Assembly: GCF_058153355.1 (NCBI RefSeq)
Contig: NZ_CM177019.1
DNA length: 64,000 nucleotides
Strand: one strand, 5' to 3'
Below are positions 1 through 22,249 of the stretch, one piece after another. The stretch's first letter is position 1. Each line of letters begins with the position of its first letter. The notes under the pieces were generated by a model. The model worked only from the letters and a program-made list of their open reading frames with translations. It searched no databases and was not told the origin of the DNA. Made by a program: the position numbers and the translations under genes.

Positions 1-1184
1 TTGTAACCCTGTCCTAAATCCTCTTTTTTCGATTGTGACGGAAAAATTCCAAAGTTGGTTTGACTTTTATACGTCAGCTGGAAGGCCTTACCCTGTTGTG
101 TTTCCAGCGTGATATTTTCACCTTCAGATAAACGTTCTTGTAGGCGAGTAAGTGCGCTATCCAACATTTCCTGCGCACCAGCATGACCAAAGGCGGCATC
201 CTCGCATATCTGTTTAAAAATACCTGCCTTTATTTCGTATTTTACATTACCGTCATCAGTAGTCTCAGCTCTTAAACCTTCAATAAACTCTTCATAACCA
301 AAGCTCTGATGAAAGGTGATAAAACGCACTCGATTATCTTTGATAAGCTGATCATAAATCTTTTTCAACTCGCGACGTTTTTCACTCTCATCCTTACCCT
401 CCTGCAGGGAGTAAGCGATCGGATCACAAATTTGTACAGCAAGCTCAATAGTACGATATGTTTTACCTGTACCTGGCGGGCCATAGAGAATTGTGTTTTT
501 AGGCAATGGCGAACTTATAACATCATCTTCTTGCTCATTTTCTTGTAAAGCACTTTCGCTTCCAACTAAACCGATAGCATTTTTATCCTGAATTTCATAC
601 GCATAGAGATGCCAAAGTGACATATTCAGCTCAATAGGGTCGATATCATCACCCAGCGCACGATTTAGCGTTTCTTTAAGATCAACATTGCGAGCCAGCC
701 ACTCCCGTTCTCCGGAAAGACCTAGCTGGAAATGGTTGTTGCAATAATTGTAGCAACTAAAAAAATTATTAACATTCACGACACTGCTAATTTTTGATGG
801 GTATATTGCTGCAAAAGCACGATTACAAAGAGCCCTATATACCTTATTTAATACTCCGTCCGCTTTAAGTTTGATAAGACGTTCAATGACCCGATTATAA
901 TTTTCTTGTGTACACTCTTCTGCTATCTGACGGGTGAGCGTTAGAAGGTCTTTTTGTGCATTTTCAAATTCAACCAATGACATCCCACCTTGCATCAGGC
1001 TGGAGACACCATTGTCACGTTCATACCATACCTGCCGAATCGTGGCTTCAGAAAAGTTTGGTTTTTCGGCCTGAATCTGTTCTACAAGCTCGCGGTAGTG
1101 TTTGCCCCAAACTGAATTGTATTGATTATTTTTTTCAATTTGAGCACGAAAGAAGGGGGCTAATGCTGATGAATCCTGAACCAT
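1..1184 (-). CDS. McrB-family AAA+ GTPase (restriction-system motor subunit homolog), N-terminal ~394 codons only; the 3' end runs off the window start
   Basis: Minus-strand reading frame opens at ATG (plus coords 1182-1184) and, as translated by hand, continues without stop to position 1. Contains a Walker A motif GPPGTGKT (around 459-482) and, further on, FHQSFGYEEFIEG, which resembles the McrB signature FHQSYSYEDFIQG. It is absent from the supplied ORF track, presumably because it is incomplete. Confidence 0.6.
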   Translation of the reverse strand, partial: MVQDSSALAPFFRAQIEKNNQYNSVWGKHYRELVEQIQAEKPNFSEATIRQVWYERDNGVSSLMQGGMSLVEFENAQKDLLTLTRQIAEECTQENYNRVIERLIKLKADGVLNKVYRALCNRAFAAIYPSKISSVVNVNNFFSCYNYCNNHFQLGLSGEREWLARNVDLKETLNRALGDDIDPIELNMSLWHLYAYEIQDKNAIGLVGSESALQENEQEDDVISSPLPKNTILYGPPGTGKTYRTIELAVQICDPIAYSLQEGKDESEKRRELKKIYDQLIKDNRVRFITFHQSFGYEEFIEGLRAETTDDGNVKYEIKAGIFKQICEDAAFGHAGAQEMLDSALTRLQERLSEGENITLETQQGKAFQLTYKSQTNFGIFPSQSKKEDLGQGY

Positions 1185-1542
1185 CTCTTAATCCAATATG
1201 TAGGGGGGAGGGAAATTGGGATAGCCTTATCTTATCGGATTAATCTCAAAAATGTTAAATTTTATGATAAAAAAAAACTTTCATCCTGAAATTACCTTCT
1301 GCCCTGGAGCCGCCACATTTATCTGATGACTTTGAACTGCAAAACGCATGGTGTTGGTGGTTCTCAGAGAAGGCCATAGCATTCTTTCAGACGTAAAATC
1401 GCTACTCGTTTTTCAACCTGTGTGCATTTTCTAGTTGCATAGGGAATCAACTGTTTTTCAGGTAGGTATTGTTTACAGTAAATGGATATGCCGAAATTCA
1501 GAGGGTTCCAGTAACGACATTTTGACAGCAAACATACGACAT

Positions 1543-2376
1543 TCATTTTGCTGATAACGCTGACGGATAGTGCTTCGCCACAATGTCATTCATCTTATCC
1601 ACCAGATCCAGTCGCTTGAATGTGATGTGTCCACTGCCTTTCTGGTAATAGCGGATGACAAATAAATCGTCATTAAATACCTGCTCATGCGGGTGAGCAC
1701 TAACGAAGTCCATAAACCGAATCGCAACATCATGCCGGTTATCGGGAATGGCCTTCCCATCCAGCAGATAGAACATCCGTTCCAGATCGGCAAGCTGATC
1801 TCGCCGCCAGCCCCAGTGCAGGCTGTAACCCCATCGGTCATGCTTCACCAGATTGTTAACGATAATCTTCTTACCGAAATAACAGGGATTATTGGTTTTG
1901 TAATCCCAGCTCAATCCCTTAAATACATTGATAATCCCACGTTCGAAAACGTCATGCTTATTGTGGTGGAGTTGTTCAAAGGTACTCAGGATGTTGGCTT
2001 CGCTAATCGCCGGGAGATCGCCCTCCTCCAGGTTCTTTGCCCACTGACTGCGGGCTTCGGCATCCATCAGAGTCAACATCCCGGACTTCAGCATGAGATC
2101 GCGCCAGATGCTGCGATCGATATTGCGGGTGATCGCCGACATCGCTTTGTCGGTTGGTTGCATCAGCCAGCAGTCAAAGGCATATCCATTACGCATTCCC
2201 CAGGTTCCAGCCACATCACCGCCAATACTGGATGTCAGACTGGAGATATCATCCAGTTTTTGGATTAGCGTCGCTATCAGCTTCAGTGCGCTATCACGTC
2301 CTGTGACGATACGCTCAATATTGGTCGAGCGAATTATCTCGTTGTGATCGGTTAAGACTTCAGCTTCTGTTTGCAT
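1543..2376 (-). CDS. Hypothetical protein, 277 aa, function unknown; lies between the McrB-like gene and the divergently transcribed hsdM
   Basis: Longest ORF in the interval and same strand as the McrB-like gene 358 bp downstream. I see no nucleotide-binding or methyltransferase motif. The plus-strand ORFs overlapping it (1687..2268, 2093..2347) look like antisense shadows. Confidence 0.45.
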   Translation of the reverse strand: MQTEAEVLTDHNEIIRSTNIERIVTGRDSALKLIATLIQKLDDISSLTSSIGGDVAGTWGMRNGYAFDCWLMQPTDKAMSAITRNIDRSIWRDLMLKSGMLTLMDAEARSQWAKNLEEGDLPAISEANILSTFEQLHHNKHDVFERGIINVFKGLSWDYKTNNPCYFGKKIIVNNLVKHDRWGYSLHWGWRRDQLADLERMFYLLDGKAIPDNRHDVAIRFMDFVSAHPHEQVFNDDLFVIRYYQKGSGHITFKRLDLVDKMNDIVAKHYPSALSAK

Positions 2377-2682
2377 AATCTTTCATCCGTAAAAAAATAC
2401 ACTCGCCGTTAGTAGCAGACGGATTATCCTCTGGTGAAAGATTGGGTAAATAATGAGATTGAAAATCGGGAAGGTGACTCGCAATAAATTATCTGATCAC
2501 CTACGGATGGACGATGGGCATATAAAATAGCCTCCTGACTCAAACGGTGAATGCTGAATAAGATGCACTAACAATCTGGTACTGAATCCCCTCCTCACCG
2601 TCATACAAATCTGAAAAACCAAAAAACTTCCGGTAAAATCCCGGCAAAAGCCGACGTTAAAAACACATTCAAAGGATAAAAA

Positions 2683-4239
2683 ATGACCAGTCTTCAGCAG
2701 CGCGCGGAGCTTCATCGCCAAATCTGGCAAATTGCTAACGATGTCAGAGGTTCGGTCGATGGATGGGATTTTAAGCAATACGTTCTGGGCGCGCTTTTCT
2801 ACCGTTTTATCAGCGAAAATTTTTCCAGCTATATTGAAGCCGGTGATGACAGCATCTGTTATGCGAAACTGGATGACAGCGTAATTACTGATGACATTAA
2901 AGACGATGCCATCAAAACCAAAGGCTACTTCATCTACCCAAGTCAGCTTTTCTGCAACGTAGCTGCGAAAGCAAATACCAATGACAGACTGAACGCAGAT
3001 TTAAACAGCATCTTCGTTGCTATCGAAAGTTCTGCTTACGGTTACCCTTCAGAAGCTGACATCAAAGGTTTGTTTGCTGATTTCGATACCACCAGTAACC
3101 GCCTGGGTAATACCGTTAAGGATAAAAATGCCCGCCTGGCCGCGGTTCTGAAAGGGGTTGAAGGGTTAAAGCTTGGCGACTTTAACGAACATCAGATTGA
3201 CCTGTTCGGCGATGCCTATGAGTTCCTGATTTCTAACTATGCGGCGAATGCCGGTAAGTCAGGCGGCGAGTTCTTTACACCGCAGCACGTCTCTAAGCTG
3301 ATTGCACAACTGGCTATGCACGGGCAGACCCACGTTAACAAAATCTACGACCCGGCAGCGGGTTCCGGTTCGCTGTTGTTGCAGGCTAAAAAGCAGTTTG
3401 ATGACCACATCATCGAAGAAGGTTTTTTTGGTCAGGAAATCAACCATACGACCTATAACCTGGCGCGTATGAACATGTTTTTGCACAACATCAACTACGA
3501 CAAGTTTGATATCAAGTTGGGCAATACGCTGACTGAGCCGCACTTCAGAGATGAAAAACCGTTTGACGCCATCGTATCTAACCCACCGTATTCGGTGAAA
3601 TGGATAGGCAGCGATGACCCGACGCTGATTAACGATGAACGTTTTGCCCCGGCTGGCGTCCTGGCCCCCAAATCAAAAGCTGACTTCGCCTTTGTACTAC
3701 ATGCGCTGAACTATCTTTCTGCCAAAGGTCGTGCTGCGATTGTCTGCTTCCCGGGTATTTTTTACCGTGGCGGCGCAGAGCAGAAAATCCGTCAGTATCT
3801 GGTTGATAATAACTATGTCGAAACCGTGATTTCACTGGCTCCGAACCTGTTCTTTGGCACCACCATTGCCGTCAATATTCTGGTGTTGTCTAAACATAAA
3901 ACCGATACCAAAGTTCAGTTTATTGACGCCAGCGAACTATTCAAAAAAGAGACTAACAACAACATTCTGACCGATGCCCATATCGAACAGATTATGCAGG
4001 TATTTGCCAGCAAGGAAGATGTTGCTCATCTGGCGAAATCTGTCGCGTTTGAGACCGTTGTCGCTAATGACTATAACCTGTCGGTAAGCAGCTATGTGGA
4101 AGCGAAAGATAACCGCGAAATTATCGATATCAGTGAGCTGAATGCTGAGCTGAAAACCACGGTCAGCAAAATCGACCAGTTGCGTAAAGATATTGATGCG
4201 ATTGTGGCTGAAATTGAAGGCTGCGAGGTGCAGAAATGA
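2683..4239 (+). CDS. hsdM: Type I restriction-modification system DNA methyltransferase subunit M (type IC-like)
   Basis: 518-aa ORF with an N6-adenine methyltransferase NPPY motif ([11 protein letters not shown]) and the AdoMet-binding region ([11 protein letters not shown]). RBS aaaggat sits upstream of the ATG at 2683. The stop overlaps the hsdS start (ATGA at 4236-4239). Confidence 0.9.
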
Positions 4240-5390
4240 ACGAGTTGAGTTATCTGGAAAAATTACTGGATGGGGTTGAGGTTGAGTGGTTGCCATTGGC
4301 TAAAGTTTGTCGTTTAATAAACGGGAGAGCATATAAGCAAGAAGAACTGCTTTCCAAAGGCAAATATCCAGTATTAAGAGTCGGTAATTTTTTTACTAAC
4401 CAAAATTGGTATTACTCAGATTTAGAATTAGATCAAGACAAGTATTGTGATAACGGTGACCTTTTATATGCTTGGTCCGCATCATTTGGTCCAAGAATTT
4501 GGCATGGGGGTAAATCTATTTACCATTATCACATATGGAAAGTGGTTCCAGATTCGAATCTTATTTGTAAACAGTTTCTATATTACTTGTTACAATGGGA
4601 TACTAAAGCACTTAAAGATGCACATAGCACTGGTTCTACTATGATGCACATCAGCAAAACTACAATTGAAAAAAGGTTAGTCCCCATCCCCTGCCCGGAT
4701 AATCCGGAAAAATCCCTTGCCATCCAGTCTGAAATCGTTCGGATTCTGGATAAATTTACTGCACTTACCGCTGAGCTTACCGCTGAGCTTAATATGCGAA
4801 AAAAACAGTACAACTACTATCTCGACCAGTTACTGAATCTTGAGGGTAGGGAAAATACTCGAGAAATGAGGATAGGTGATATTTATGATTTTCAGTATGG
4901 AACAGGCAATACAATTCCTAAATCTGGAGGGCAATATCCTGTTTATGGTAGCAACGGGATTGTAGGCTCCCATGACAAATATAACAGCGAAGACTCACCT
5001 GTTATTGGCCATATAGGTGCTTACGCAGGAATCGTTAACTGGGGCCAGGGTAAGCATTTTGTTACATACAACGGAGTTATTTGTAGGCACAAATCGAAGG
5101 AAGTTCTTCAAAAATACGCCTACTATTTATTACTTTTACAAGATTTCGGTTCAAAATCTAATAGTGCATCACAGCCTTTTGTTTCATATAACATATTAAA
5201 TGCTCCTATTGTTTTGGTTCCCCCTTTACAAGAGCAAGCTCGTATCGTCGCAATACTCGATAAATTCGACACCCTGACCAACTCCATCACCGAAGGTCTT
5301 CCGCGTGAAATCGAGTTGCGCCAGAAACAATACGAGTACTATCGTGATTTACTGTTCAGTTTCCCAAAACCTGAAACTCTCAGTAATTAA
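4236..5390 (+). CDS. hsdS: Type I restriction-modification system specificity subunit S (type IC-like, two target-recognition domains)
   Basis: 384-aa ORF translationally coupled to hsdM. It has two AT-rich variable regions separated by a conserved central region containing TAEL repeats, plus a conserved C-terminal region ([30 protein letters not shown]), as in EcoR124-type HsdS. Confidence 0.85.
4767..4790 (+). repeat. Two tandem copies of a 12-bp repeat ACCGCTGAGCTT (encoding TAEL-TAEL) in the central conserved region of hsdS
   Basis: Direct reading: accgctgagctt accgctgagctt at 4767-4790. In type IC HsdS, the copy number of this repeat is known to set the spacer length of the recognition sequence. 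Confidence 0.85.
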
Positions 5391-5511
5391 TTGACCATTA
5401 TTACAGACCGGACCATCTTAATATCCGGTCAGTATATAGACTATTTTTTACACGCCGGAAGTCACCATTAACCCCCTTCCGGCCCTTGCCAGACGGCACA
5501 AAGGATGCGCT

Positions 5512-8500
5512 ATGACTCATCAAACACACACCATTGCTGAATCCAATAACTTTATCGTTCTTGATAAGTACATCAAAGCTGAGCAAACAGGCGACAGCTA
5601 TCAGAGCGAATCGGACCTGGAACGTGAACTGATTCAGGACCTGCAAAATCAGGGCTATGAATTTATACCCGTAAAATCACAGTCAGCGATGCTGGCCAAC
5701 GTTCGGGAACAGCTTCAGAGCCTCAATGGTGTGGTGTTTAATGACAGCGAGTGGCGGCGTTTCACGGAGCAGTATCTGGATAACCCGAGCGATGGCATTC
5801 TGGATAAGACCCGTAAAATCCATATCGACTATATTTGCGACTTTATTTTTGATGACGAGCGACTTGAGAACATCTATTTGATAGATAAAAAGAATCTCAT
5901 GCGCAATAAGGTGCAGATTATCCAGCAGTTTGAACAGGCGGGTTCCCACTCTAACCGCTATGATGTCACGATCCTGATTAATGGCTTACCACTGGTACAA
6001 ATCGAACTGAAAAAGCGCGGCGTGGCGATTCGTGAGGCTTTCAACCAGATACATCGTTACAGTAAAGAGAGTTTTAACAGCGAAAATTCCCTGTTTAAGT
6101 ATCTGCAACTGTTTGTCATTTCTAACGGCACCGATACCCGTTACTTTGCCAACACCACAAAGCGCGATAAAAATAGTTTTGACTTCACCATGAACTGGGC
6201 GAAATCAGACAACACGCTGATTAAAGACCTCAAAGATTTTACCGCTACCTTTTTCCAGAAACATACTCTGCTTAATGTTCTGGTGAACTACAGCGTGTTC
6301 GATATTAGCCAGACGCTACTGGTGATGCGACCGTACCAGATTGCCGCCACCGAACGAATCTTATGGAAAATCAACAGCTCCTATAAAGCGAAAAACTGGT
6401 CTACCCCCGAAAGCGGTGGCTTTATCTGGCACACCACCGGTTCCGGTAAAACCCTGACCAGCTTTAAAGCTGCGCGTCTGGCAACAGAGCTGGACTTTAT
6501 TGATAAAGTCTTCTTCGTGGTCGACAGAAAAGACCTCGATTACCAGACCATGAAGGAATATCAGCGTTTTTCGCCAGATAGTGTTAACGGTTCGGAAAAT
6601 ACCGCAGGCCTGAAACGAAATCTGGATAAGGACGATAACAAAATTATCGTCACCACTATTCAGAAACTTAATAACCTGATGAAAGCAGAAAGCGACCTGC
6701 CTGTATACAATCAGCAAGTGGTGTTTATATTTGATGAATGTCACCGCAGCCAGTTTGGAGAAGCGCAGAAAAACCTGAAGAAGAAATTCAAACGCTATTA
6801 TCAGTTTGGTTTTACCGGCACACCTATTTTCCCGGAAAACGCTTTAGGCTCAGAAACGACCGCCAGCGTATTTGGTCGTGAATTGCATTCGTATGTGATT
6901 ACCGATGCGATTCGTGATGAAAAAGTGCTCAAATTCAAGGTGGACTATAACGATGTGCGGCCACAATTTAAGTCTTTAGAGACAGAAACCGACGAGAAAA
7001 AACTGAGTGCGGCTGAAAATCAGCAGGCGTTTCTTCATCCCATGCGTATACAGGAAATTACGCAATATATTCTGAATAACTTCCGCCAGAAGACCCACCG
7101 TACTTTCCCAGGTTCCAAAGGCTTTAATGCCATGCTGGCAGTGAGTAGCGTGGATGCCGCGAAAGCCTATTACGCGACGTTTAAACGGTTACAAGAGGAA
7201 GCCGCTAATAAATCTGCTACCTATAAACCACTACGTGTTGCGACAATCTTCTCCTTTGCCGCTAATGAAGAACAAAATGCCATTGGTGAAATTTCCGATG
7301 AAACTTTTGATACCAGCGCAATGGACAGCAGTGCTAAAGAGTTTCTCGACGCTGCAATTCGTGAATATAACAGCTATTTTAAAACTAACTTCAGTACCGA
7401 CAGTAACGGTTTTCAGAACTACTATCGTGATTTAGCCCAACGGGTTAAAAATCAGGATATCGATCTGTTAATTGTCGTTGGGATGTTTTTAACCGGCTTC
7501 GACGCTCCAACATTGAACACGCTATTCGTCGATAAAAACTTGCGTTTTCACGGCCTGATGCAGGCATTTTCCCGCACCAACCGCATTTATGACGCCACTA
7601 AAACCTTCGGTAACATCGTCACTTTTCGGGATCTGGAACGCTCAACCATTGATGCCATAACGCTGTTTGGTGATAAAAATACCAAAAATGTGGTGTTAGA
7701 AAAGAGTTATGCCGAGTATATGGAAGGCTTTACAGATGCTGCCACTGGTGAAGCTAAACGCGGCTTTATGGCAGTAGTTTCAGAACTGGAACAACGGTTC
7801 CCTGACCCTGCCAGTATTGAAAGTGAAAAAGAGAAGAAAGACTTCGTTAAACTGTTTGGTGAATACCTGCGCGCCGAGAACATCCTGCAAAACTATGATG
7901 AATTTGCCACGCTGAAAGCCCTGCAACAAATCGATCTTAGCGATCCTGTTGCGGTAGAAAAATTCAAAGCAGAACATTATGTGGATGATGAAAAGTTTGC
8001 TGAATTACAAACGATTCGTCTCCCTGCTGAACGTAAGATTCAGGATTATCGTTCGGCCTATAACGATATTCGTGACTGGCAGCGCCGCGAGAAAGAAGCT
8101 GACAAAAAAGAAAAATCAACCACTGACTGGGATGACGTGGTTTTTGAGGTCGATTTGCTGAAGTCTCAGGAAATAAACCTGGATTATATCCTTGGACTGA
8201 TTTTCGAACACAACAGACAAAACAAAGGTAAGGGCGAAATGACCGAAGAGGTCAAACGCTTAATTCGTTCGAGCCTTGGGAACCGTGCCAAAGAAGGCCT
8301 GGTGGTCGATTTTATTCAACAAACGAACCTGGATGATTTGCCGGATAAAGCCAGTATCATTGACGCGTTCTTTATCTTTGCTCAACGCGAACAGCAACGT
8401 GAAGCAGAAGCGTTGATTAAAGAAGAAAATCTCAATGAAGAAGCAGCGAAACGCTATATTCGCACGTCTTTAAAACGCGAATACGCCACCGAAAATGGCA

Positions 8501-8628
8501 CAGAATTAAACGAGACGTTACCAAAACTTAGTCCGTTAAACCCGCAATATAAAACGAAAAAACAGACGGTTTTCCAGAAGATCGTCGCGTTTATTGAGAA
8601 GTTTAAAGGTGTAGGCGGGCAGATATAA
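5512..8628 (+). CDS. hsdR: Type I restriction enzyme endonuclease/helicase subunit R (type IC-like, 1038 aa)
   Basis: 1038-aa ORF with SF2 helicase motifs (Walker A TTGSGKT, DEAH-like [10 protein letters not shown]). The length matches type IC HsdR such as EcoR124I as I recall it. A 121-bp gap after hsdS leaves room for its own promoter. Confidence 0.9.
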
Positions 8629-8852
8629 TGTATTAATCCGAACCTGATCTGGCAGATAGCTGTCAGATCAGGACTGAGCTAATACAAATTAATATCGAAC
8701 CGAAAATACCAACGCCTGTACCAACATTTTTCGTTTGCGATGGGTTGAAATTGGTTGGCTCTGAGAGAGTTAAAATAGCGAGAAAGATAGGTAACTAATG
8801 GATCCCAGACACAAAAAAAGCCGCCCTTGAGCGACTCGATTTGCATACGATG

Positions 8853-8937
8853 TGGTGCCGAAGGCCGGACTCGAACCGGCACGTATTTCTACGGTTGATT
8901 TTGAATCAACTGCGTCTACCGATTTCGCCACTTCGGC
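8853..8937 (-). tRNA. leuX: tRNA-Leu (anticodon CAA)
   Basis: The minus-strand sequence GCCGAAGTGGCGAAATCGGTAGACGCAGTTGATTCAAAATCAACCGTAGAAATACGTGCCGGTTCGAGTCCGGCCTTCGGCACCA has acceptor stem, D-loop, anticodon loop UUCAAAA (anticodon CAA), the long variable arm of a class II tRNA, T-loop GGTTCGAGTCC and 3' CCA. Confidence 0.92.
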
Positions 8938-9132
8938 ACTGAAGAGGTATGCGGAAAACGTTGTGGATTATACCTGTCGCACGCCACCATGCAAGCGCCA
9001 GCTTGCACCCACTTTGCTAAGTGCTGAAATTTTCAGCATTGCATACCGCGATGTGTAACCTTTGTCACACTCCAGGCACCCCGCCCTACCATGCTCTACA
9101 CTTCCCAGACAACACCAGAGAAGGACAAAAAT

Positions 9133-10218
9133 ATGTCGATGATAAAAAGCTATGCCGCAAAAGAGGCTGGCGGCAAACTGGAAGTTTATGAGTACGATCC
9201 CGGTGAACTGAAGCCACAAGATGTCGAAGTGCAGGTGGATTACTGCGGGATCTGCCATTCCGATCTGTCGATGATCGACAACGAATGGGGATTTTCACAG
9301 TATCCGCTGGTTGCCGGGCATGAGGTGATTGGGCGCGTGGTGGCGCTCGGGAGCGCCGCGCAGGATAAAGGTTTGCAGGTCGGTCAGCGTGTCGGGATTG
9401 GCTGGACGGCGCGAAGCTGTGGTCACTGCGATGCCTGTATTAGCGGTAATCAGATCAACTGCGAGCAAGGTGCGGTGCCAACAATTATGAATCGCGGCGG
9501 TTTTGCCGAGAAGTTGCGTGCAGACTGGCAATGGGTGATTCCACTGCCGGAAAATATCGATATCGATTCCGCCGGGCCGCTGCTGTGTGGTGGTATCACG
9601 GTCTTCAAACCACTGTTAATGCACCATATCACTGCCACCAGCCGCGTTGGGGTAATTGGTATTGGCGGGCTGGGGCATATCGCTATAAAACTTCTGCACG
9701 CAATGGGATGCGAGGTAACGGCCTTTAGTTCTAATCCGGCGAAAGAGCAGGAAGTGCTGGCGATGGGTGCCGATAAAGTAGTGAATAGCCGCGATCCGCA
9801 GGCACTGAAAGCACTGGCGGGGCAGTTTGATCTCATTATCAACACCGTCAACGTCAGCCTCGACTGGCAGCCTTATTTTGAGGCGCTGACGTATGGCGGT
9901 AATTTCCATACAGTCGGCGCGGTCCTCACGCCGCTGTCTGTTCCGGCCTTTACGTTAATTGCGGGCGACCGCAGCGTCTCTGGTTCAGCAACAGGTACAC
10001 CTTATGAGCTGCGTAAGCTGATGCACTTTGCCGCCCGCAGCAAGGTTGCGCCGACTACCGAACTGTTCCCTATGTCGAAAATTAACGACGCCATTCAGCA
10101 TGTACGCGATGGTAAAGCGCGCTACCGAGTGGTCCTGAAAGCCGACTTCTGCTCCCTTTGCCGGGTGCCTGTCGCCCGGCTTTTAAATCTCTTTGGAAGG
10201 CGTCTCGCAATCTGCTGA
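9133..10218 (+). CDS. ahr: NADPH-dependent aldehyde reductase Ahr (zinc-dependent alcohol dehydrogenase family); the ORF runs about 22 codons past the expected C-terminus
   Basis: ORF starting [14 protein letters not shown] with the Zn-ADH motif GHEVIG and the NAD(P)-binding GxGxxG (GVIGIGGLG). The expected end ...[10 protein letters not shown] is followed here by [22 protein letters not shown] before the stop. Confidence 0.8.
10160..10184 (+). terminator. Putative rho-independent terminator hairpin (GCCGGG..CCCGGC then TTTT) at the ahr 3' end
   Basis: Inverted repeat gccggg/cccggc followed by a T run, seen directly. It lies inside the extended ahr reading frame. Confidence 0.45.
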
Positions 10219-10281
10219 ATTTAGCGGTGAAGAGTGCGCAGCCGTTGCCTATACTCCAGGCAGGAAACTGGAGGAAATCTC

Positions 10282-11784
10282 ATGAGCGAACCCCTGTTAA
10301 TTGCCCGCACGCCGGACACAGAACTGTTTTTACTGCCGGGAATGGCTAACCGTCACGGGCTGATTACTGGCGCAACGGGGACGGGTAAAACCGTTACGCT
10401 GCAAAAACTGGCAGAGTCATTGTCGGAAATCGGTGTTCCGGTGTTTATGGCCGATGTGAAAGGTGATTTAACGGGAGTAGCGGAGGAAGGTACATCTTCG
10501 GAAAAACTGCTCGCAAGGCTGAAAAATATCGGCGTCAATGACTGGCAACCACATGCTAATCCGGTGGTGGTGTGGGATATCTTTGGCGAGAAAGGCCACC
10601 CGGTGCGGGCGACGCTTTCAGACCTGGGGCCGCTGTTGCTGGCGCGACTGTTGAATCTCAACGATGTGCAATCTGGCGTGCTGGATATCATCTTCCGCAT
10701 TGCTGATGATCAGGGGCTGTTACTGCTCGACTTTAAAGATTTGCGGGCGATTACCCAGTACATCGGCGATAACGCCAAATCCTTCCAGAATCAGTACGGT
10801 AATATCAGTAGCGCATCGGTTGGTGCCATCCAGCGCGGGCTGTTATCGCTGGAACAGCAAGGCGCAGCACACTTCTTTGGTGAGCCGATGCTGGATATCA
10901 AAGACTGGATGCGTACCGATACCAACGGTAAAGGCGTTATCAATATCCTCAGCGCCGAGAAGCTTTATCAGATGCCGAAACTGTACGCCGCCAGCCTGCT
11001 GTGGATGCTTTCAGAGTTATATGAACAATTGCCTGAAGCGGGCGATCTGGAGAAACCAAAACTGGTGTTTTTCTTCGACGAAGCACATCTGCTGTTTAAC
11101 GATGCACCGCAGGTACTGCTGGATAAGATTGAGCAGGTGATAAGGCTTATTCGCTCAAAAGGCGTGGGCGTCTGGTTCGTTTCGCAAAACCCGTCAGATA
11201 TCCCGGATAACGTGCTCGGGCAGCTCGGTAATCGCGTTCAACACGCTTTGCGTGCTTTTACGCCTAAAGATCAGAAAGCAGTAAAAGCTGCGGCGCAAAC
11301 CATGCGGGCCAATCCGGCGTTTGATACCGAAAAGGCAATCCAGGAACTGGGGACCGGCGAGGCGTTAATCTCGTTTCTCGATGCGAAAGGAAGCCCTTCA
11401 GTGGTGGAACGGGCGATGGTGATTGCCCCCTGTTCACGAATGGGGCCGGTGACGGAAGATGAGCGTAACGGCCTGATTAATAACTCCCCGGTGTATGGCA
11501 AGTACGAGGATGACGTGGACCGGGAATCCGCCTATGAGATGTTGCAAAAAGGCTTTCAGGCCAGTACCGAGCAGCAAAATAATCCTCCCGCGAAAGGGAA
11601 AGAGGTGGCGGTGGATGACGGTATTCTTGGTGGATTGAAGGATATTTTGTTTGGCACTACCGGACCACGCGGCGGGAAGAAAGATGGTGTGGTGCAAACA
11701 ATGGCGAAAAGCGCCGCCCGCCAGGTGACGAATCAGATTGTGCGTGGTGTGCTGGGGAGTTTGCTGGGGGGGAGAAGAAGGTAA
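10282..11784 (+). CDS. yjgR: Putative ATPase YjgR (DUF853 family P-loop NTPase)
   Basis: 500-aa ORF starting [20 protein letters not shown] with Walker A GATGTGKT. The ATG at 10282 is preceded by ggaggaa. Confidence 0.85.
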
Positions 11785-11944
11785 GTCAGGTGCGATTTGT
11801 CTTTGCCTGATGCGACGCTGGCGCGCCTTATCATGCCTACACTACTGCAATATATTGAATTTTCATGATTTTTCAGGCATGAACGAAGCACACTTTGCTA
11901 ACAATAATAAAGGGAGCTTTCGCTCCCTTTATTCGTTCATCCAG

Positions 11945-13027
11945 TTACGATTTTCTCATTAACAGCCACAGGCTGATTAAGAAGAAGCTGGCGCTTGGCA
12001 ACAGTGCGCCGATGATCGGCGGGATGCCGTAAACCAGCGTCAGCGGGCCGAAGATCTGGTCCAGTACGTAGAAGACAAAACCGAAGCTGATACCGGTGAC
12101 CACACGCACGCCCATCGGCACGCTACGCAGTGGGCCGAAGATGAACGACAGCGCCATCAGCATCATCACCGCCACGGATAACGGCTGGAAGATTTTGCTC
12201 CACATGTTGAGCTGATAACGTCCGGCATCCTGACCGCTCGACTTCAGATACTTCACGTAGTTGTGCAAACCACTGATGGAGAGTGCATCCGGGTCCAGCG
12301 CCACCACGCCCAGTTTGTCCGGCGTGAGGTTGGTTTTCCAGGTACCGCTCACCGTCTGTGAACCAGTGATCTGTTTCGGATTGGTCAGATCAGATTCATC
12401 AACCTGCGACAGACGCCAGACTTTATGTTCCGGGTCAAACTTCGCGGTAGCGGCATAGCGTACAGATTGCAGACGACGATTCTCATTAAAGGCATAGATA
12501 CTGATGCCACCTAACTCTTCGTCACCTTTAACCCGCTCAATGTAGACGAAGTTGTTGCCATCTTTTGCCCATAAACCTTGCTGGGTAGAGAGCAACGAGC
12601 CACCGTACATCGCCTGCGCACGGTAGTTACGCGCCATCTGCTCGCCCTGCGGTGCGACCCATTCGCCAATCGCCATCGTCAACAAGACCAGCGGAATGGC
12701 GGTTTTCATCACCGACAGTGCCACCTGCATACGGGTAAAACCAGAAGCCTGCATGACCACCAGTTCGCTGCGCTGCGCCAACATCCCAAGACCAAGCAAC
12801 GCCCCAAGCAGAGCCGCCATCGGGAAGAAGATTTGCACATCTTTCGGCACGCTCAGCAAGGTATACATTCCTGCGCCTAACGCGTCGTAACTCCCCTGCC
12901 CGGCTTTTTTCAGCTGATCGACAAACTTGATAATGCCCGACAGCGACACCAGCATGAACAGCGTCATCATGATGGTGGTGAAAATAGTTTTACCGATATA
13001 GCGGTCAAGTACGCCAAAAGGTTGCAT
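11945..13027 (-). CDS. lptG: Lipopolysaccharide export ABC transporter permease LptG
   Basis: 360-aa polytopic membrane ORF, MQPFGVLDRYIGKTIF..., whose start overlaps the lptF stop. Confidence 0.9.
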   Translation of the reverse strand: MQPFGVLDRYIGKTIFTTIMMTLFMLVSLSGIIKFVDQLKKAGQGSYDALGAGMYTLLSVPKDVQIFFPMAALLGALLGLGMLAQRSELVVMQASGFTRMQVALSVMKTAIPLVLLTMAIGEWVAPQGEQMARNYRAQAMYGGSLLSTQQGLWAKDGNNFVYIERVKGDEELGGISIYAFNENRRLQSVRYAATAKFDPEHKVWRLSQVDESDLTNPKQITGSQTVSGTWKTNLTPDKLGVVALDPDALSISGLHNYVKYLKSSGQDAGRYQLNMWSKIFQPLSVAVMMLMALSFIFGPLRSVPMGVRVVTGISFGFVFYVLDQIFGPLTLVYGIPPIIGALLPSASFFLISLWLLMRKS

Positions 13028-14127
13028 CACACCGCTCCTTTACGCGAAAAACTGGCGCGCAGGCGGCGGACCGGCACGGTGTCCCAAAGGTTGAGAACAA
13101 TCGCCAAAGCCAGATAAATCAGGTTAACGGTCCACATCCACAGCGTCGGGTCCAGCTTACCTTTACCGCCGTTCGATTTCAGGGAGGTCTGGATCAGGAA
13201 GAACAACAGATACAGCAGCATGGCTGGCAGCATCGACAGTACGCGTCCCTGACGCGGGTTAACCACGCTCAACGGTACAACCATAAGTGCCATCATAAAC
13301 ACGGTGAATACCAACGTGATACGCCAGTTCAGTTCTGCGCGGGCACGATCGGTGTCAGTGTTCCACAATGTGCGCATGTCCATCTGGTCGGTATCGTTCG
13401 GATCGAGCGCCACCGCCTGGTGACCAATGATCGCCTGATAATCCTGGAAGTCCGTAATGCGGAAATCGCGTAACAGTGCAGTGCCTTCGAAGCGCGTTCC
13501 CTGGTTGAGAGTGACGACCTGGGAGCCGTCGCGCAGCTGGGTTAAATGTCCGGAATCGGCCACCACCACAGAAGGACGTGCATTACCTTTTGGTCGAATT
13601 TGCGCGAGGAACACATCTTTGAAATCGCTGCCGTCAACGCTTTCGATGAACAGCACCGAGCTGCCATTAGTCGCTTGCTGGAATTGCCCTTGCGCCAGCG
13701 CCGCCATGCCAGGGTTCGCTTTCGCTTCTGCTAACACTTCATCCTGATGACGCGATGACCACGGTCCCGCCCACATCACGTTAACCGCCGCGACGATTGC
13801 CGTGAATACCGCAAGGATCATTGCCGCTTTCACCAGCACCGCTTTGCTCAGGCCGCAGGCATGCATTACCGTAATTTCACTTTCGGTATACAGTTTGCCC
13901 AGCGTCATCAGCAGCCCGAGGAACAGGCTTAATGGCAGGATAAGCTGCGCCATTTCCGGCACGCCCAACCCGAGAAGGGAGAGCACCAGATTCGCCGGAA
14001 TATCGCCGTCAACCGCTGCGCCGAGGATCCTCACTAACTTTTGACAGAAGAAGATCAAAAGCAAGATGAAGAGTATCGCCAGCTGGCTTTTGAGCGTCTC
14101 CCGCACCAGATATCTTATGATTATCAC
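13027..14127 (-). CDS. lptF: Lipopolysaccharide export ABC transporter permease LptF
   Basis: 366-aa ORF, MIIIRYLVRETLKSQL..., divergent from pepA. Confidence 0.9.
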   Translation of the reverse strand: MIIIRYLVRETLKSQLAILFILLLIFFCQKLVRILGAAVDGDIPANLVLSLLGLGVPEMAQLILPLSLFLGLLMTLGKLYTESEITVMHACGLSKAVLVKAAMILAVFTAIVAAVNVMWAGPWSSRHQDEVLAEAKANPGMAALAQGQFQQATNGSSVLFIESVDGSDFKDVFLAQIRPKGNARPSVVVADSGHLTQLRDGSQVVTLNQGTRFEGTALLRDFRITDFQDYQAIIGHQAVALDPNDTDQMDMRTLWNTDTDRARAELNWRITLVFTVFMMALMVVPLSVVNPRQGRVLSMLPAMLLYLLFFLIQTSLKSNGGKGKLDPTLWMWTVNLIYLALAIVLNLWDTVPVRRLRASFSRKGAV

Positions 14128-14390
14128 TTTAAATACGCCCGTAAAAACTCGTCTTTTGCAGGATTTTAGCTTGTTTCATGGCTTAAACGTCATTTATTCT
14201 CTTGAGTCGTCGAAATCGTCGCTAAGATAATTATACTCAACGGATTCACCTCTCAGATTTTGTTCTGACGTGCCAATGCCGTAATAACGTTAAGATTAAC
14301 ACGAAGTCATCGCAACAGCGGACATGAGTTACGAAAGCTTGCAATTCTATCTGTAGCCACCGCCGTTGTCTTTAAGATTCAGGAGCGTAG

Positions 14391-15905
<1,515 letters not shown>

Positions 15906-15926
15906 TTGCATCAGGCTGTGTTGTTA

Positions 15927-16014
<88 letters not shown>

Positions 16015-16067
16015 AACGCTGTGTATTACCAAATGCATATTTAAATCCACCACAAGAAGCCCCATTT

Positions 16068-16511
16068 ATGAAAAACGCGACGTTCTACCTTCTGGACAAT
16101 GACACCACCGTCGATGGCTTAAGCGCCGTTGAGCAACTGGTGTGTGAAATTGCCGCAGAACGTTGGCGCAGCGGTAAGCGCGTACTCATCGCCTGTGAAG
16201 ATGAAAAGCAGGCTTACCGGCTGGATGAAGCCCTGTGGGCGCGTCCGGCAGAAAGCTTTGTTCCGCATAATTTAGCGGGAGAAGGACCGCGCGGCGGTGC
16301 GCCGGTGGAGATCGCCTGGCCACAAAAGCGTAGCAGCAGCCCGCGCGATATATTGATTAGTCTGCGAACAAGCTTTGCAGATTTTGCCACCGCTTTCACA
16401 GAAGTGGTAGACTTCGTTCCTTATGAAGATTCTCTGAAACAACTGGCGCGCGAACGCTATAAAGCCTACCGCGTGGCTGGTTTCAACCTGAATACGGCAA
16501 CCTGGAAATAA
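16068..16511 (+). CDS. holC: DNA polymerase III chi subunit
   Basis: 147-aa [60 protein letters not shown].... Its stop overlaps the valS start. Confidence 0.9.
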
Positions 16512-19366
16512 TGGAAAAGACATACAACCCACAAGATATCGAACAGCCGCTTTACGAGCACTGGGAAAAGCAGGGCTACTTTAAGCCTAATGGCGATGAA
16601 AGCCAGGAAAGTTTCTGCATCATGATCCCGCCGCCGAACGTCACCGGCAGTTTGCATATGGGTCACGCCTTCCAGCAAACCATCATGGATACCATGATCC
16701 GCTATCAGCGCATGCAGGGCAAAAACACCCTGTGGCAGGTCGGTACTGACCACGCAGGGATCGCTACCCAGATGGTCGTTGAGCGCAAGATTGCCGCAGA
16801 AGAAGGTAAAACCCGTCACGACTACGGCCGCGAAGCTTTCATCGACAAAATCTGGGAATGGAAAGCGGAATCCGGCGGCACCATTACCCGTCAGATGCGC
16901 CGTCTCGGCAACTCCGTCGACTGGGAGCGTGAACGCTTCACCATGGACGAAGGCCTGTCCAATGCGGTGAAAGAAGTTTTCGTTCGTCTGTATAAAGAAG
17001 ACCTGATTTACCGTGGTAAACGCCTGGTAAACTGGGACCCGAAACTGCGTACCGCAATCTCTGACCTGGAAGTGGAAAACCGCGAATCGAAAGGTTCGAT
17101 GTGGCACATCCGCTATCCGCTGGCTGACGGCGCGAAAACCGCAGACGGTAAAGATTATCTGGTGGTTGCGACCACTCGCCCGGAAACCCTGCTGGGCGAT
17201 ACCGGCGTGGCCGTTAACCCGGAAGATCCGCGTTACAAAGATCTGATTGGCAAATATGTCATTCTGCCGCTGGTTAACCGTCGTATTCCGATTGTTGGCG
17301 ACGAACACGCCGATATGGAAAAAGGCACCGGCTGCGTGAAGATCACTCCGGCGCACGACTTTAACGACTATGAAGTCGGTAAACGTCACGCCCTGCCGAT
17401 GATCAACATCCTGACCTTTGACGGCGATATCCGTGAAAGCGCTCAAGTGTTCGATACTAAAGGTAACGAATCTGACGTTTATTCCAGCGAGATCCCAGCA
17501 GAGTTCCAGAAACTGGAGCGTTTTGCTGCGCGTAAAGCGGTCGTTGCCGCGGTTGACGCACTCGGCCTGCTGGAAGAAATTAAACCGCACGACCTGACCG
17601 TTCCTTACGGCGACCGTGGCGGCGTGGTTATCGAACCGATGCTGACCGACCAGTGGTACGTACGTGCCGACGTGCTGGCGAAACCGGCGGTTGAAGCGGT
17701 TGAGAACGGCGACATTCAGTTCGTACCGAAGCAGTACGAAAACATGTACTTCTCCTGGATGCGCGATATTCAGGACTGGTGTATCTCTCGTCAGCTGTGG
17801 TGGGGTCACCGCATCCCGGCATGGTATGACGACGCGGGTAACGTTTATGTTGGCCGCAACGAAGACGAAGTGCGTAAAGAAAATAACCTCGGTGCTGATG
17901 TTGCCCTGCGTCAGGACGAAGACGTTCTCGACACCTGGTTTTCCTCCGCGCTGTGGACCTTCTCCACGCTCGGCTGGCCGGAAAACACCGACGCCCTGCG
18001 TCAGTTCCACCCAACCAGCGTGATGGTATCTGGTTTCGACATCATCTTCTTCTGGATTGCCCGCATGATCATGATGACCATGCACTTCATCAAAGATGAA
18101 AATGGCAAACCGCAGGTGCCGTTCCACACCGTTTACATGACCGGCCTGATTCGTGATGACGAAGGCCAGAAGATGTCCAAATCCAAGGGTAACGTGATTG
18201 ACCCGCTGGATATGGTTGACGGTATTTCGCTGCCGGAACTGCTGGAAAAACGTACCGGCAATATGATGCAGCCGCAGCTGGCGGACAAAATCCGTAAGCG
18301 CACCGAGAAGCAGTTCCCGAACGGCATTGAGCCGCACGGTACTGACGCGCTGCGCTTCACCCTGGCGGCGCTGGCTTCTACCGGTCGTGACATCAACTGG
18401 GATATGAAGCGTCTGGAAGGCTACCGTAACTTCTGTAACAAGCTGTGGAACGCCAGCCGCTTTGTGCTGATGAACACAGAAGGTCAGGATTGCGGCTTCA
18501 ACGGCGGCGAAATGACGCTGTCGCTGGCGGACCGCTGGATTCTGGCGGAGTTCAATCAGACCATTAAAGCGTACCGCGAAGCGCTGGACAGCTTCCGCTT
18601 CGATATCGCCGCAGGCATTCTGTATGAATTCACCTGGAACCAGTTCTGTGACTGGTATCTCGAGCTGACCAAGCCGGTAATGAACGGTGGCACCGAAGCA
18701 GAACTGCGCGGTACTCGCCATACGCTGGTGACTGTACTGGAAGGTCTGCTGCGCCTCGCGCATCCGATCATTCCGTTCATCACCGAAACCATCTGGCAGC
18801 GTGTGAAAGTACTTTGCGGCATCACCGCTGACACCATCATGCTGCAGCCGTTCCCGCAGTACGATGCGTCTCAGGTCGATGAAGCCGCACTGGCCGACAC
18901 CGAGTGGCTGAAGCAGGCGATCGTTGCGGTACGTAACATCCGTGCAGAAATGAACATCGCACCGGGTAAACCGCTGGAGCTGCTGCTGCGTGGTTGCAGC
19001 GCGGATGCAGAACGTCGCGTAAATGAAAACCGTGGCTTCCTGCAAACGCTGGCGCGTCTGGAAAGCATCACCGTGCTGCCTGCCGATGACAAAGGTCCGG
19101 TTTCTGTTACGAAGATCATCGACGGTGCAGAGCTGCTGATCCCGATGGCTGGCCTCATCAACAAAGAAGATGAGCTGGCGCGTCTGGCGAAAGAAGTGGC
19201 GAAGATTGAAGGTGAAATCAGCCGTATCGAGAACAAACTGGCGAACGAAGGCTTTGTCGCCCGCGCACCGGAAGCGGTCATCGCGAAAGAGCGTGAGAAG
19301 CTGGAAGGCTATGCGGAAGCGAAAGCGAAACTGATTGAACAGCAGGCTGTTATCGCCGCGCTGTAA
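16511..19366 (+). CDS. valS: Valine--tRNA ligase
   Basis: 951-aa ORF with class I aaRS HIGH ([13 protein letters not shown]) and KMSKS motifs and a C-terminal coiled coil. The large antisense ORF 16466..19045 is a shadow of it. Confidence 0.95.
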
Positions 19367-19385
19367 TACTCATAGTGAAAACGAA

Positions 19386-19411
19386 GGCCGGAGCATACTC
19401 CGGCCTTTTTT
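19386..19411. terminator. Bidirectional rho-independent terminator between convergent valS and yjgN
   Basis: ggccggag-cata-ctccggcc hairpin followed by TTTTTT. Confidence 0.7.
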
Positions 19412-20190
19412 ATCTCTTACAGAAATGGTAAAGAAGGCATAACTCCCCGAGAAATACTGGCTAAGAAGCCTTTATCTGGTTGTTCTTCTTTATTGATTAA
19501 AGGAAGGTCATCCAAATCGCCCAGCAAATACGTATTTTTTGCCTGCCAGTCAATCATCCATATTTTCAACAGTGGATAAGCCAGACCGCCCGTAATCCCG
19601 GATATCACCACCAACGCACACATGCGATAAAGCATACCGTGGTACGTTAAAGTTGAGCGAAAACGAATACGCCCATCATTCAGTGACAGGTTGCTCATAA
19701 AATGGTTTCGCAACGACACCGTTAAATAACTGGTGCTAACAGCAATCCCAAAATAATAGATTAACTGCGCGATTATCATTTTACGTTGCATTTCCATAAA
19801 TTGCTGTAAATTCTCAATGTCATCATTTGCATATACAGAACTATCATACGCATTTAATATTTGATCGAAGATAATATAACCAGCAACAGCGAGAAAAGGC
19901 AATAAAGCTAAAAATGCGAGAATGGCATATTTTATACAATACGTAGTATCTAATTTCACCTTGAAACGATGTATACCGAAACTGGTATTGCTCCAGAGAA
20001 AACTCATTACCAGACTATATAAAGTACCATTAAAAATACCAATGGAAACAATACCAACTATTGCCATCAGAACCATAGATATAATAACACTACTTGAACT
20101 ATTGGCATGTAGCATCTTTGTCGAGATAAAGAAAACAGTCCCCATCCCAACGGCCATTAAAATCGGCAAGAAAAAGGTCACCCACCAGAG

Positions 20191-21616
20191 TAATGCCGAT
20201 CAGTTAAGGATCAGTTGACCGATCCAGTGGCTGTGTAAGAATCCGGAAACGCTCACTTGTTTCCGGATTTTTTTATGCACATTGGACAGGCTCTTGATCT
20301 GGTATCCCGTTACGATTCTCTGCGTAACCCACTGACTTCTCTGGGGGATTACCTCGACCCCGAACTCATCTCTCGTTGCCTTGCCGAATCAGGTACTGTA
20401 ACGCTACGCAAGCGCCGTCTTCCCCTCGAAATGATGGTCTGGTGTATTGTTGGCATGGCGCTTGAGCGTAAAGAACCTCTTCACCAGATTGTGAATCGCC
20501 TGGACATCATGCTGCCGGGCAATCGCCCCTTCGTTGCCCCCAGTGCCGTTATTCAGGCCCGCCAGCGCCTGGGAAGTGAGGCTGTCCGCCGCGTGTTCAC
20601 GAAAACAGCGCAGCTCTGGCATAACGCCACGCCGCATCCGCACTGGTGCGGCCTGACCCTGCTGGCCATCGATGGTGTGTTCTGGCGCACACCGGATACA
20701 CCAGAGAACGATGCAGCCTTCCCCCGCCAGACACATGCCGGGAACCCGGCGCTCTACCCGCAGGTCAAAATGGTCTGCCAGATGGAACTGACCAGCCATC
20801 TGCTGACGGCTGCAGCCTTCGGCACGATGAAGAACAGCGAAAATGAGCTTGCTGAGCAACTTATAGAACAAACCGGCGATAACACTCTGACGTTAATGGA
20901 TAAAGGTTATTACTCACTGGGACTGTTAAATGCCTGGAGCCTGGCGGGAGAACACCGCCACTGGATGATACCTCTCAGAAAGGGAGCGCAATATGAAGAG
21001 ATCAGAAAACTGGGTAAAGGCGATCATCTGGTGAAGCTGAAAACCAGCCCGCAGGCACGAAAAAAGTGGCCGGGACTGGGAAATGAAGTGACAGCCCGCC
21101 TGCTGACCGTGACGCGCAAAGGAAAAGTCTGCCATCTGCTGACGTCGATGACGGACGCCATGCGCTTCCCCGGAGGAGAAATGGCGGATCTGTACAGTCA
21201 TCGCTGGGAAATCGAACTGGGATACAGGGAGATAAAACAGACGATGCAACTGAGCAGGCTGACGCTGAGAAGTAAAAAGCCGGAGCTTGTGGAGCAAGAG
21301 CTGTGGGGTGTCTTACTGGCTTATAATCTGGTGAGATATCAGATGATTAAAATGGCGGAACATCTGAAAGGTTACTGGCCGAATCAACTGAGTTTCTCAG
21401 AATCATGCGGAATGGTGATGAGAATGCTGATGACATTGCAGGGCGCTTCACCGGGACGTATACCGGAGCTGATGCGCGATCTTGCAAGTATGGGACAACT
21501 TGTGAAATTACCGACAAGAAGGGAAAGGGCCTTCCCGAGAGTGGTAAAGGAGAGGCCCTGGAAATACCCCACAGCCCCGAAAAAGAGCCAGTCAGTTGCT
21601 TAACTGACTGGCATTA
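20191..21616 (+). mobile_element. Insertion sequence IS4 (1426 bp) with 18-bp imperfect terminal inverted repeats and a 12-bp target-site duplication
   Basis: Left end TAATGCCGATCAGTTAAG; right end reverse complement TAATGCCAGTCAGTTAAG (16/18 match). Direct repeats CACCCACCAGAG at 20179-20190 and 21617-21628. Confidence 0.9.
20275..21603 (+). CDS. insG: IS4 transposase (DDE family)
   Basis: 442-aa [30 protein letters not shown]..., spanning almost the whole element. Confidence 0.9.
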
Positions 21617-22249
21617 CACCCACCAGAGCCCTTTCATAGAGCAATTAAAACTAAATCTTACGCCGTTGAGACTGGTCATTAAGGCCTGATGACGCAGTCC
21701 TTTTGCTGCCATAAATATAAGCAAAACCAACAGTAACAAAGTCAAAACACAACCAACAAGCGGCATATCTGCTGACACTGTCATTAAGATTGCGAAATAG
21801 AAAAAAACAAAAACAAAAACAAGACAACTAACAAAAACATTCCCACCGGTAATTCCATAAGAAAATCGTTGTCCGTTAACTTCCATATTAGCATAAAGAT
21901 AACGCTTACATTTCATTAATGCCCATGGTAAATAGATACCTAACGTTATAATCGTTAACAACACATTCACCACACAAATAAGAAAATATCTCTCACCTGT
22001 ACCATGAAAAACAAACGAATGGGACGGAACATCCATTTCATTAATAACTTGAGCCATAAAAAATCCCTGAATTAAAAAATCCATTGATATAACTTATATA
22101 TACAGACAGTAAAATGTTCTGCCACGTTACAATACTCTTATCAGTAATAGGCTGGCAAAAACTTTATTACTTTATAAGTCGCTTGCGCACGTAAGAAGAG
22201 AGTGGTATTAAACAAATGTATAATTACTTTATTTTTATTGGGTTAAACT

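Follow-up and report, generated by a model that had tools for sequence, protein, structure and literature searches.

The subject of this analysis is a restriction–modification operon, hsdM-hsdS-hsdR, beside the tRNA gene leuX in a stretch of 64,000 nucleotides from contig NZ_CM177019.1 (RefSeq assembly GCF_058153355.1). The whole stretch is referred to as the window, and positions are counted from its first letter. From position 1 to the tRNA gene, the only genes found were part of a McrB gene, a gene for a DUF4942 protein and the three hsd genes; no integrase-like gene was found there, as had been stated in the original prediction, which was made without database searches and placed the hsd genes directly against leuX. 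With high confidence, the locus is read as an intact type IC operon in the fixed, integrase-less remains of an old island at leuX, where it would spread and diversify by homologous exchange.

The hsd operon and its subunits

Three intact, co-oriented open reading frames (ORFs) were mapped on the plus strand (Table 1). Their order, hsdM-hsdS-hsdR, is the type IC order known from EcoR124I and matches that of plasmid-borne type IC copies. The hsdM stop codon and the hsdS start codon overlap in an ATGA (4236–4239), and the two genes are translationally coupled; hsdR follows behind a gap of its own. Both features had been predicted. The gap is contiguous with the plasmid type IC copies (∼95.7 % identity). 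A separate hsdR promoter is an idea carried over from EcoR124I; no sigma-70 consensus site was found by a consensus promoter scan of the hsdS–hsdR spacer. A gene for the anticodon nuclease PrrC is likewise absent between hsdS and hsdR, where the 121 bp hold no ORF and are too short for prrC. EcoprrI, also a chromosomal type IC system of E. coli, carries PrrC and has three TAEL repeats in HsdS (PMC3874165), compared with two in the window. The operon is not EcoprrI-like, because its hsdS–hsdR gap cannot accommodate prrC.

HsdR was aligned with the crystallised HsdR of EcoR124I (2w00_A) over residues 1–1038 of 1038 (2257 bits); identity is ∼97.6 %, with about 24 substitutions counted in the first 1010 residues. 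HsdM is near-identical to EcoR124 HsdM (7bst_D; 1155 bits over residues 1–518), whereas the type IA subunit EcoKI HsdM gave only 66 bits. Family models agreed: TIGR00497 hsdM (NCBIfam) matched HsdM with 649 bits (cutoff 243), and HsdR was matched by TIGR00348 (NCBIfam, 756 bits) and REase_I (PADLOC, 1605 bits). The Pfam domain EcoR124_C was matched in HsdR of a near-identical contig, AAXEGZ010000031.1. The N-terminal, central (LTAELTAEL) and C-terminal constant regions of HsdS are identical or near-identical to those of EcoR124 HsdS (7bst_A), which also has two TAEL repeats. Both target recognition domains (TRDs) are unrelated to the EcoR124 TRDs, and neither could be aligned. Since HsdR, HsdM and the HsdS constant regions match the EcoR124 subunits, and type IA EcoKI only distantly, the operon is, on these similarities, a bona fide member of the EcoR124 family and not merely type IC-like. 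The original assignment to type IC was thereby upheld, as was the type IC size of 1038 residues given for HsdR, which is also that of EcoR124I; the type IA or IB match that would have spoken against it was not seen.

The prototype EcoR124I/EcoR124II is encoded on plasmid R124 and has in common with the window the 1038-residue HsdR, HsdM, the constant regions of HsdS and the gene order. EcoR124I is plasmid-borne, whereas the window operon is chromosomal. The EcoR124I target, GAA(N6)RTCG, is not that of the window HsdS, both TRDs being unrelated.

The catalytic set of HsdR was complete: nuclease residues D151, E165 and K167, the QxxxY motif (Q179, Y183), a Walker A motif GSGKT and a DECH box. 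In HsdM, the S-adenosylmethionine-binding motif DPAAGSG and the NPPY motif can be read in the translation. With three full-length ORFs and readable catalytic motifs, no disabling lesion of the kind named beforehand as counter-evidence was present. The operon could nevertheless be a silent or decaying remnant without restriction or modification activity, given that the rest of the island is a relic, that some relatives carry an insertion in hsdM and that no consensus promoter was found before hsdR. The ORFs, however, align end to end with active EcoR124 subunits, every catalytic residue checked is conserved, and the mosaic HsdS described below keeps intact constant regions, all of which is as expected under continuing selection for function; this explanation is therefore considered unlikely.

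Table 1. Positions and properties of the features between the window start and leuX.
Feature	Position	Strand	Properties
McrB-family GTPase gene, N-terminal part	1–1184	−	runs off window start; type IV restriction
DUF4942 gene	1543–2376	−	277 aa, divergent from hsdM; Pfam DUF4942, E 1.4e-68
linker between DUF4942 module and hsd cassette	2493–2679	+	presumed hsdM promoter region; promoter-like site 2611–2639
hsdM	2683–4239	+	518 aa, type IC N6-adenine DNA methyltransferase subunit
hsdS	4236–5390	+	384 aa, specificity subunit; TRD1, central region with 2× TAEL, TRD2, C-terminal constant region
hsdS–hsdR spacer	5391–5511	+	121 bp; small hairpin GACCGGA...TCCGGTC at 5406–5430
hsdR	5512–8628	+	1038 aa, type IC translocase–endonuclease subunit
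stem-loop downstream of hsdR	8643–8672	+	13-pair stem, 4-nt loop, no U tract
putative relic of integrase-proximal arm, P4/CP4-type leuX island	8683–8852	−	aligns with K-12 leuX-intB intergenic region
leuX, tRNA-Leu(CAA), intact	8853–8937	−	ARAGORN; Rfam 59.4 bits

The island between nanS and leuX

The tRNA-Leu(CAA) gene is the only tRNA gene that ARAGORN found in the window, and its 3′ end faces hsdR. It is 100 % identical to leuX of K-12, and the genes after it, ahr, yjgR, lptG and lptF, are those found there in annotated E. coli genomes, so that the label leuX given to it earlier is borne out by both identity and synteny. The spacer between the hsdR stop (8628) and the 3′ end of the tRNA gene (8853) measures 224 bp (about 220 bp had been estimated); apart from the tRNA, Rfam reported nothing in it.

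Two elements occupy this spacer. The first is an inverted repeat (cctgatctg, 8643–8651; cagatcagg, 8664–8672), which had been noticed at this site and proved longer than reported, since it forms part of a 13-pair stem. A 9-bp inverted repeat alone is near chance expectation in 6 kb. Folding of a 75-nt stretch gave −27.8 kcal mol−1 (z = −7.1), and 0 of 200 shuffles were as stable. Identical arms, around a longer loop, lie downstream of hsdR on plasmid pTB212. Because of the full 13-pair stem and its conservation beside hsdR on the plasmid, the hairpin is regarded as real; it belongs to the hsd cassette and is probably a 3′-end or terminator structure. A role as island boundary or attachment site (att) feature was ruled out, as the repeat accompanies hsdR on pTB212.

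The second element, from position 8683 to the tRNA, aligns with the region between leuX and the integrase gene intB of K-12 (∼75 % over 156 bp, E 7e-19); sequence of this class is present in ∼2000 E. coli genomes. It contains a rho-independent terminator-like site for leuX (8837–8818, minus strand), with a stem sequence that differs from that of K-12, although in both a hairpin is followed by a T run.

Because the window begins within McrB, in the interior of the island, it cannot by itself settle whether an integrase lies farther out. The McrB fragment and the McrB gene annotated in E. coli BE2-5 are collinear (97.3 %); the fragment gave a weak match to the NCBIfam McrB model. Contig AAXEGZ010000031.1 (E. 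coli GCA_015332025.1) encodes an identical HsdS, is 99.98 % identical to window positions 1–15390 (3 mismatches) and reaches 5.7 kb beyond the window start, to nanS and nanM. On this contig a full 684-aa McrB gene with AAA_5/McrB_lid domains is followed by McrC, nanS is intact, and the nanS–leuX interval is 12.76 kb. From nanS, the order is ScoMcrA_N-HNH (216 aa), ScoMcrA-like SBD-HNH (290 aa), McrC, McrB, DUF4942, hsdM, hsdS and hsdR; elsewhere, annotation calls the ScoMcrA-like SBD-HNH protein a phosphorothioated-DNA-binding restriction endonuclease. The same gene set is present in the complete genomes A25 and BE2-5. The guanine plus cytosine (GC) content of the island is 43.5 %, as against 53.4 % in the core flank.

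No integrase or recombinase was found between leuX and nanS on this contig, nor an integrase in A25 and BE2-5. An integrase distal to the hsd genes, beyond the window start, would make the locus a still-mobile integrative element; leuX is, after all, a classical target of P4-type integrases, and other strains have integrase-bearing elements there. The missing part up to nanS and nanM, however, holds only the ScoMcrA-like nucleases, McrC and McrB, with A25 and BE2-5 alike, and the island contains no direct repeat of the leuX 3′ end. For the lineage of the window this explanation is already refuted, and overall it is given hardly any credence. Of the two fates originally proposed for the integrase, loss thus stands and a distal position falls. 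The direct repeat that had been expected was found neither in the window nor in the island with up to 3 mismatches in 21 nt, and local alignment of the leuX 3′ end gave scores at the level of shuffles, whether in the DUF4942–McrB gap, at the nanS end or over the island as a whole.

Among the features by which tRNA islands are recognised, the position at the 3′ end of a tRNA gene and the atypical base composition were found, and an adjacent tyrosine integrase and a distal direct repeat were not. As a defence island the locus qualifies by its clustering of type I, McrBC and ScoMcrA-like SBD-HNH pair genes, with variable content, between core genes.

On the other side of the hsd genes lies the DUF4942 gene, whose product was matched by none of the PADLOC and NCBIfam models. 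Its orthologs in Klebsiella, Yersinia and Salmonella are 84–86 % identical, and DNA homology with these genera (81 %) spans window positions 1545–2492, that is, the gene and 116 bp upstream. In all three, CP4-type islands carry the gene at their distal end, downstream of antirestriction, RadC, CbeA and CbtA genes; in Salmonella no further island gene separates it from chromosomal DNA. The DUF4942 gene in the window has thus probably survived from the distal end of an integrative island of the CP4 type. The linker between it and hsdM lies outside both homologies, that to CP4-like islands ending at 2492 and that to plasmid hsd copies starting at 2680, and sequence upstream of hsdM on the plasmid type IC copies differs from that in the window. 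The promoter-like site in the linker scores 9/12 and is a consensus match only.

A functional partnership between DUF4942 and type IC hsdM was also considered. As a general rule it was rejected: no hsd gene lies beside the orthologs in Klebsiella, Yersinia and Salmonella, and another chromosomal type IC operon has no DUF4942 neighbour. A type IC operon was also found within a CP4-44-like island (Ag43, YeeP GTPase) at another E. coli locus. On pTB212 (2097–3782 of the retrieved segment, minus strand), a 561-aa ‘class I SAM-dependent methyltransferase’ is encoded divergently from type IC hsdM, and its residues 86–302 show homology with the DUF4942 protein of the chromosome (22 % identity, E 4e-10). 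The occurrence of DUF4942 beside type IC hsdM in two otherwise unrelated contexts may be coincidence, since other contexts lack the adjacency.

The same interval is occupied in K-12 by KpLE2 (leuX-intB ... nanS), in which the tRNA-proximal arm is ∼75 % alike. KpLE2 carries intB and ∼40 kb of other cargo, whereas the window island has 12.8 kb of restriction genes and no integrase. In K-12 MG1655, a fragment of ∼250 bp with 90.7 % identity to the 5′ part of the SBD-HNH gene was seen between yjhR and nanS (8269–8515 of the retrieved segment). Because of the arm relic and this SBD-HNH fragment beside nanS, the K-12 element and the window island are taken to share both extremities and to differ in their interiors.

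A pair of genes for SBD_ScoMcrA+HNH_2 (∼290 aa) and ScoMcrA_N+HNH (∼212–216 aa) proteins, in opposite orientation, was also observed a few genes beyond DUF4942 in Klebsiella islands (∼10.7–13.3 kb of the retrieved segments; the AAXEGZ010000031.1 copy is at 1866–3525), which suggests that the pair is a conserved two-gene, modification-dependent nuclease module.

Distribution, plasmid copies and the HsdS allele

The hsdR–leuX junction was found in 315 of 5426 complete E. coli genomes (5.8 %), with other content at the site in the rest. Together with the low GC content, this argues against a conserved non-island region, the third possibility that had been named as speaking against an island. Between strains the island is 94–98 % identical, similar to the adjacent core genes (93–97 %). 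Later integration into leuX, by an integrase-bearing 15-kb element, a CbtA-type island and a P4-like satellite, has pushed the hsd block away in E2348/69, Tig228 and FWSEC0008; partial copies of the leuX 3′ end remain beside the 224-bp spacer and hsdR (31 bp in E2348/69, 20 bp in Tig228). Because later elements insert at leuX, the gene is considered a still active landing site, and the hsd block behaves as chromosomal backbone.

The hsd cassette (2680–8663) is common to more than 500 E. coli plasmids at 95–99 % identity, with homology from 3 bp before the hsdM start into the hairpin behind hsdR, where it ends. A recent insertion of plasmid DNA beside leuX, from an R124-like plasmid or a phage-plasmid, would account for this and for a TRD shared with pTB212 (see below). 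The best identity among the plasmids listed, however, is ∼95–96 %, no better than that of other chromosomal leuX copies (94–98 %); neither insertion sequence (IS) nor plasmid backbone flanks the cassette; and 315 genomes have this arrangement on the chromosome, diverging about as much as neighbouring core genes do. No plasmid in PLSDB was at least 99 % identical across 2680–8663 with the HsdS allele of the window. On account of identity, flanks and the 315 genomes, exchange with plasmids is held to be real for TRDs and gene conversion, and recent insertion of the whole cassette to be highly improbable.

In type I systems, the two TRDs of HsdS set the target, and how far apart the methylated adenines lie (7 nt in EcoR124I) is determined by the TAEL repeats of the central helix. 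The number of repeats sets the gap: two give 6 bp in EcoR124I, three give 7 bp (PMC3874165; PMC12707154, Table 1). When five alleles were aligned, the window's among them, TRD1 of the window was identical to TRD1 of the chromosomal BE2-5 allele, and TRD2 was amino-acid identical to TRD2 of the pTB212 allele. Two TAEL repeats were counted in the window, BE2-5 and A25, and three in pTB212 and E2348/69. By this alignment the HsdS allele is a mosaic, with TRD1 from a chromosomal and TRD2 from a plasmid-borne allele, and type IC specificity changes here by the classical route, in which TRDs are reassorted and the TAEL repeat undergoes unequal crossing-over. At 90 % clustering the exact protein forms a singleton, with only a handful of sequences 98–99 % identical to it, and six different HsdS lengths were seen among the six genomes opened with hsd at leuX.

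Recognition half-sites could not be assigned: in the PDB, only the EcoR124 TRDs are available, which do not match, and a large protein search returned generic names only. A literature search found no allele-level specificity data for this HsdS. With two TAEL repeats, the methylated adenines would be expected 7 nt apart, as in EcoR124I, with an N6 gap if the half-sites share its register.

In BE2-5 and Tig228, hsdM (14683–17500 of the retrieved BE2-5 segment, 13049–15866 of that from Tig228) is split by an IS3 insertion, and hsdS and hsdR are intact. Such a split would abolish both modification and restriction and amount to a natural knock-out.

Some further observations concern the core side of leuX. 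In comparison with nearly all complete E. coli genomes, the core genes beside it (9000–20000) are only ∼95–98 % identical, with a best match of 98.1–98.2 %. This divergence is above expectation within the species and fits a recombination-prone flank or a divergent lineage. The gene ahr is directly followed by yjgR (junction 10219–10233); as in A25 and BE2-5, there is no L-idonate operon idnK-idnDOTR between them, unlike in K-12 and NR329. A 1.4-kb IS4-family element (20190–21617; ORF 20257–21603, plus strand; transposase 304 bits to NCBIfam IS4) splits yjgN into fragments at 19417–20181 and 21614–22084. About 10 bp of the uninterrupted BE2-5 sequence are present on both sides of it, consistent with a target-site duplication. 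In the yjgR–lptG gap, Rfam gave a sub-threshold match to the small RNA ES036 (CssrF) at 11833–11872, minus strand (32.7 bits against a gathering threshold of 37.6, E 0.0024).

Reading of the locus and published setting

The simplest reading is that a CP4/P4-type leuX island had its interior, integrase included, replaced by or deleted down to hsdMSR. In this decayed tRNA island the integrase-proximal arm and the distal DUF4942 gene would have survived, the interior would have given way to the hsdMSR cassette, and the distal att repeat would be gone. With integrase and distal att repeat lost, no site-specific excision would be possible any more. The island would persist vertically and spread by homologous recombination through its flanks, and HsdS would diversify by exchange of TRDs and TAEL repeats. 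The absence of integrase and leuX direct repeat and the variable, low-GC content of the site agree with the original description of a fixed defence island rather than an obviously mobile one.

The operon encodes a complete type IC enzyme that would work by the established type I scheme, in which an HsdM2-HsdS1 complex adds a methyl group to one adenine per half-site of a bipartite target, and R2M2S1, on an unmethylated target, translocates DNA at the expense of ATP and cuts at a distance, thus restricting phage and plasmid DNA. Translation of hsdM and hsdS is coupled, and hsdR, after its gap, ends in the conserved hairpin.

Several points weigh against this reading. Because the arm relic is only ∼75 % identical to the region upstream of the integrase in K-12, we infer rather than reconstruct the descent from an integrase-bearing island. 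A close relative that has both the arm and an adjacent integrase was not found, and all close arm matches that were opened also carried hsdR. The view of DUF4942 as a terminal gene is based on the three genera sampled. The relatives with IS3 in hsdM demonstrate that the operon can be inactivated, and the consensus promoter scan, with 14 sites found and 11.4 expected, did no better than shuffles. Restriction and modification activity are predicted from sequence, and the N6 gap depends on the new TRDs sitting in the register of EcoR124I.

The general picture has been published: leuX is the most occupied defence hotspot of E. coli, type IC systems are present there, and most occupants lack mobility genes. 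Hotspot #37 is occupied in 97 % of E. coli, almost always by defence systems, and in 68 % of cases no mobile element is detectable (Hochhauser et al. 2023, PMC10121019). The EcoSal Plus review of 2025 anchors hotspot #37 at leuX, with type IC at 4 % of such loci, and reports type IC there and not at the hsd-mrr immigration control region (PMC12707154). The island described here represents the same locus (leuX to the fim/nan side) in a variant that holds defence genes only. The review describes a tRNA-anchored integrase as the mobilising activity, whereas in this variant there is none and only ∼170 bp of the upstream arm are left. The immigration control region (hsd-mrr-mcrBC, hotspot #36) is likewise an integrase-less cluster of type I and McrBC-type IV systems with cassette-like hsdS alleles; it differs in its locus (yjiA–yjiN) and in housing the IA, IB and ID families, never IC (PMC12707154). 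A type IC operon at leuX without an integrase is therefore an arrangement already described, real but ordinary. The only details added to it are the relic termini, the placing of the hairpin within the hsd cassette and the finding that a rare HsdS allele is of mosaic origin.

Beyond annotation the finding matters little. It is possible, and put forward tentatively, that the mosaic HsdS recognises a so far uncharacterised sequence; the locus, with its relic termini, would in that case be evidence that cassettes without an integrase at hotspot #37 diversify and spread purely by homologous exchange, including TRD traffic between chromosome and plasmids, and not by site-specific mobility. An active EcoR124-type barrier against incoming DNA is probable in this strain, which would be relevant to transformation, phage typing and the interpretation of methylomes. 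The locus is also a clean example of a tRNA island decaying to a fixed defence cassette, with the tRNA gene still serving as a landing pad.

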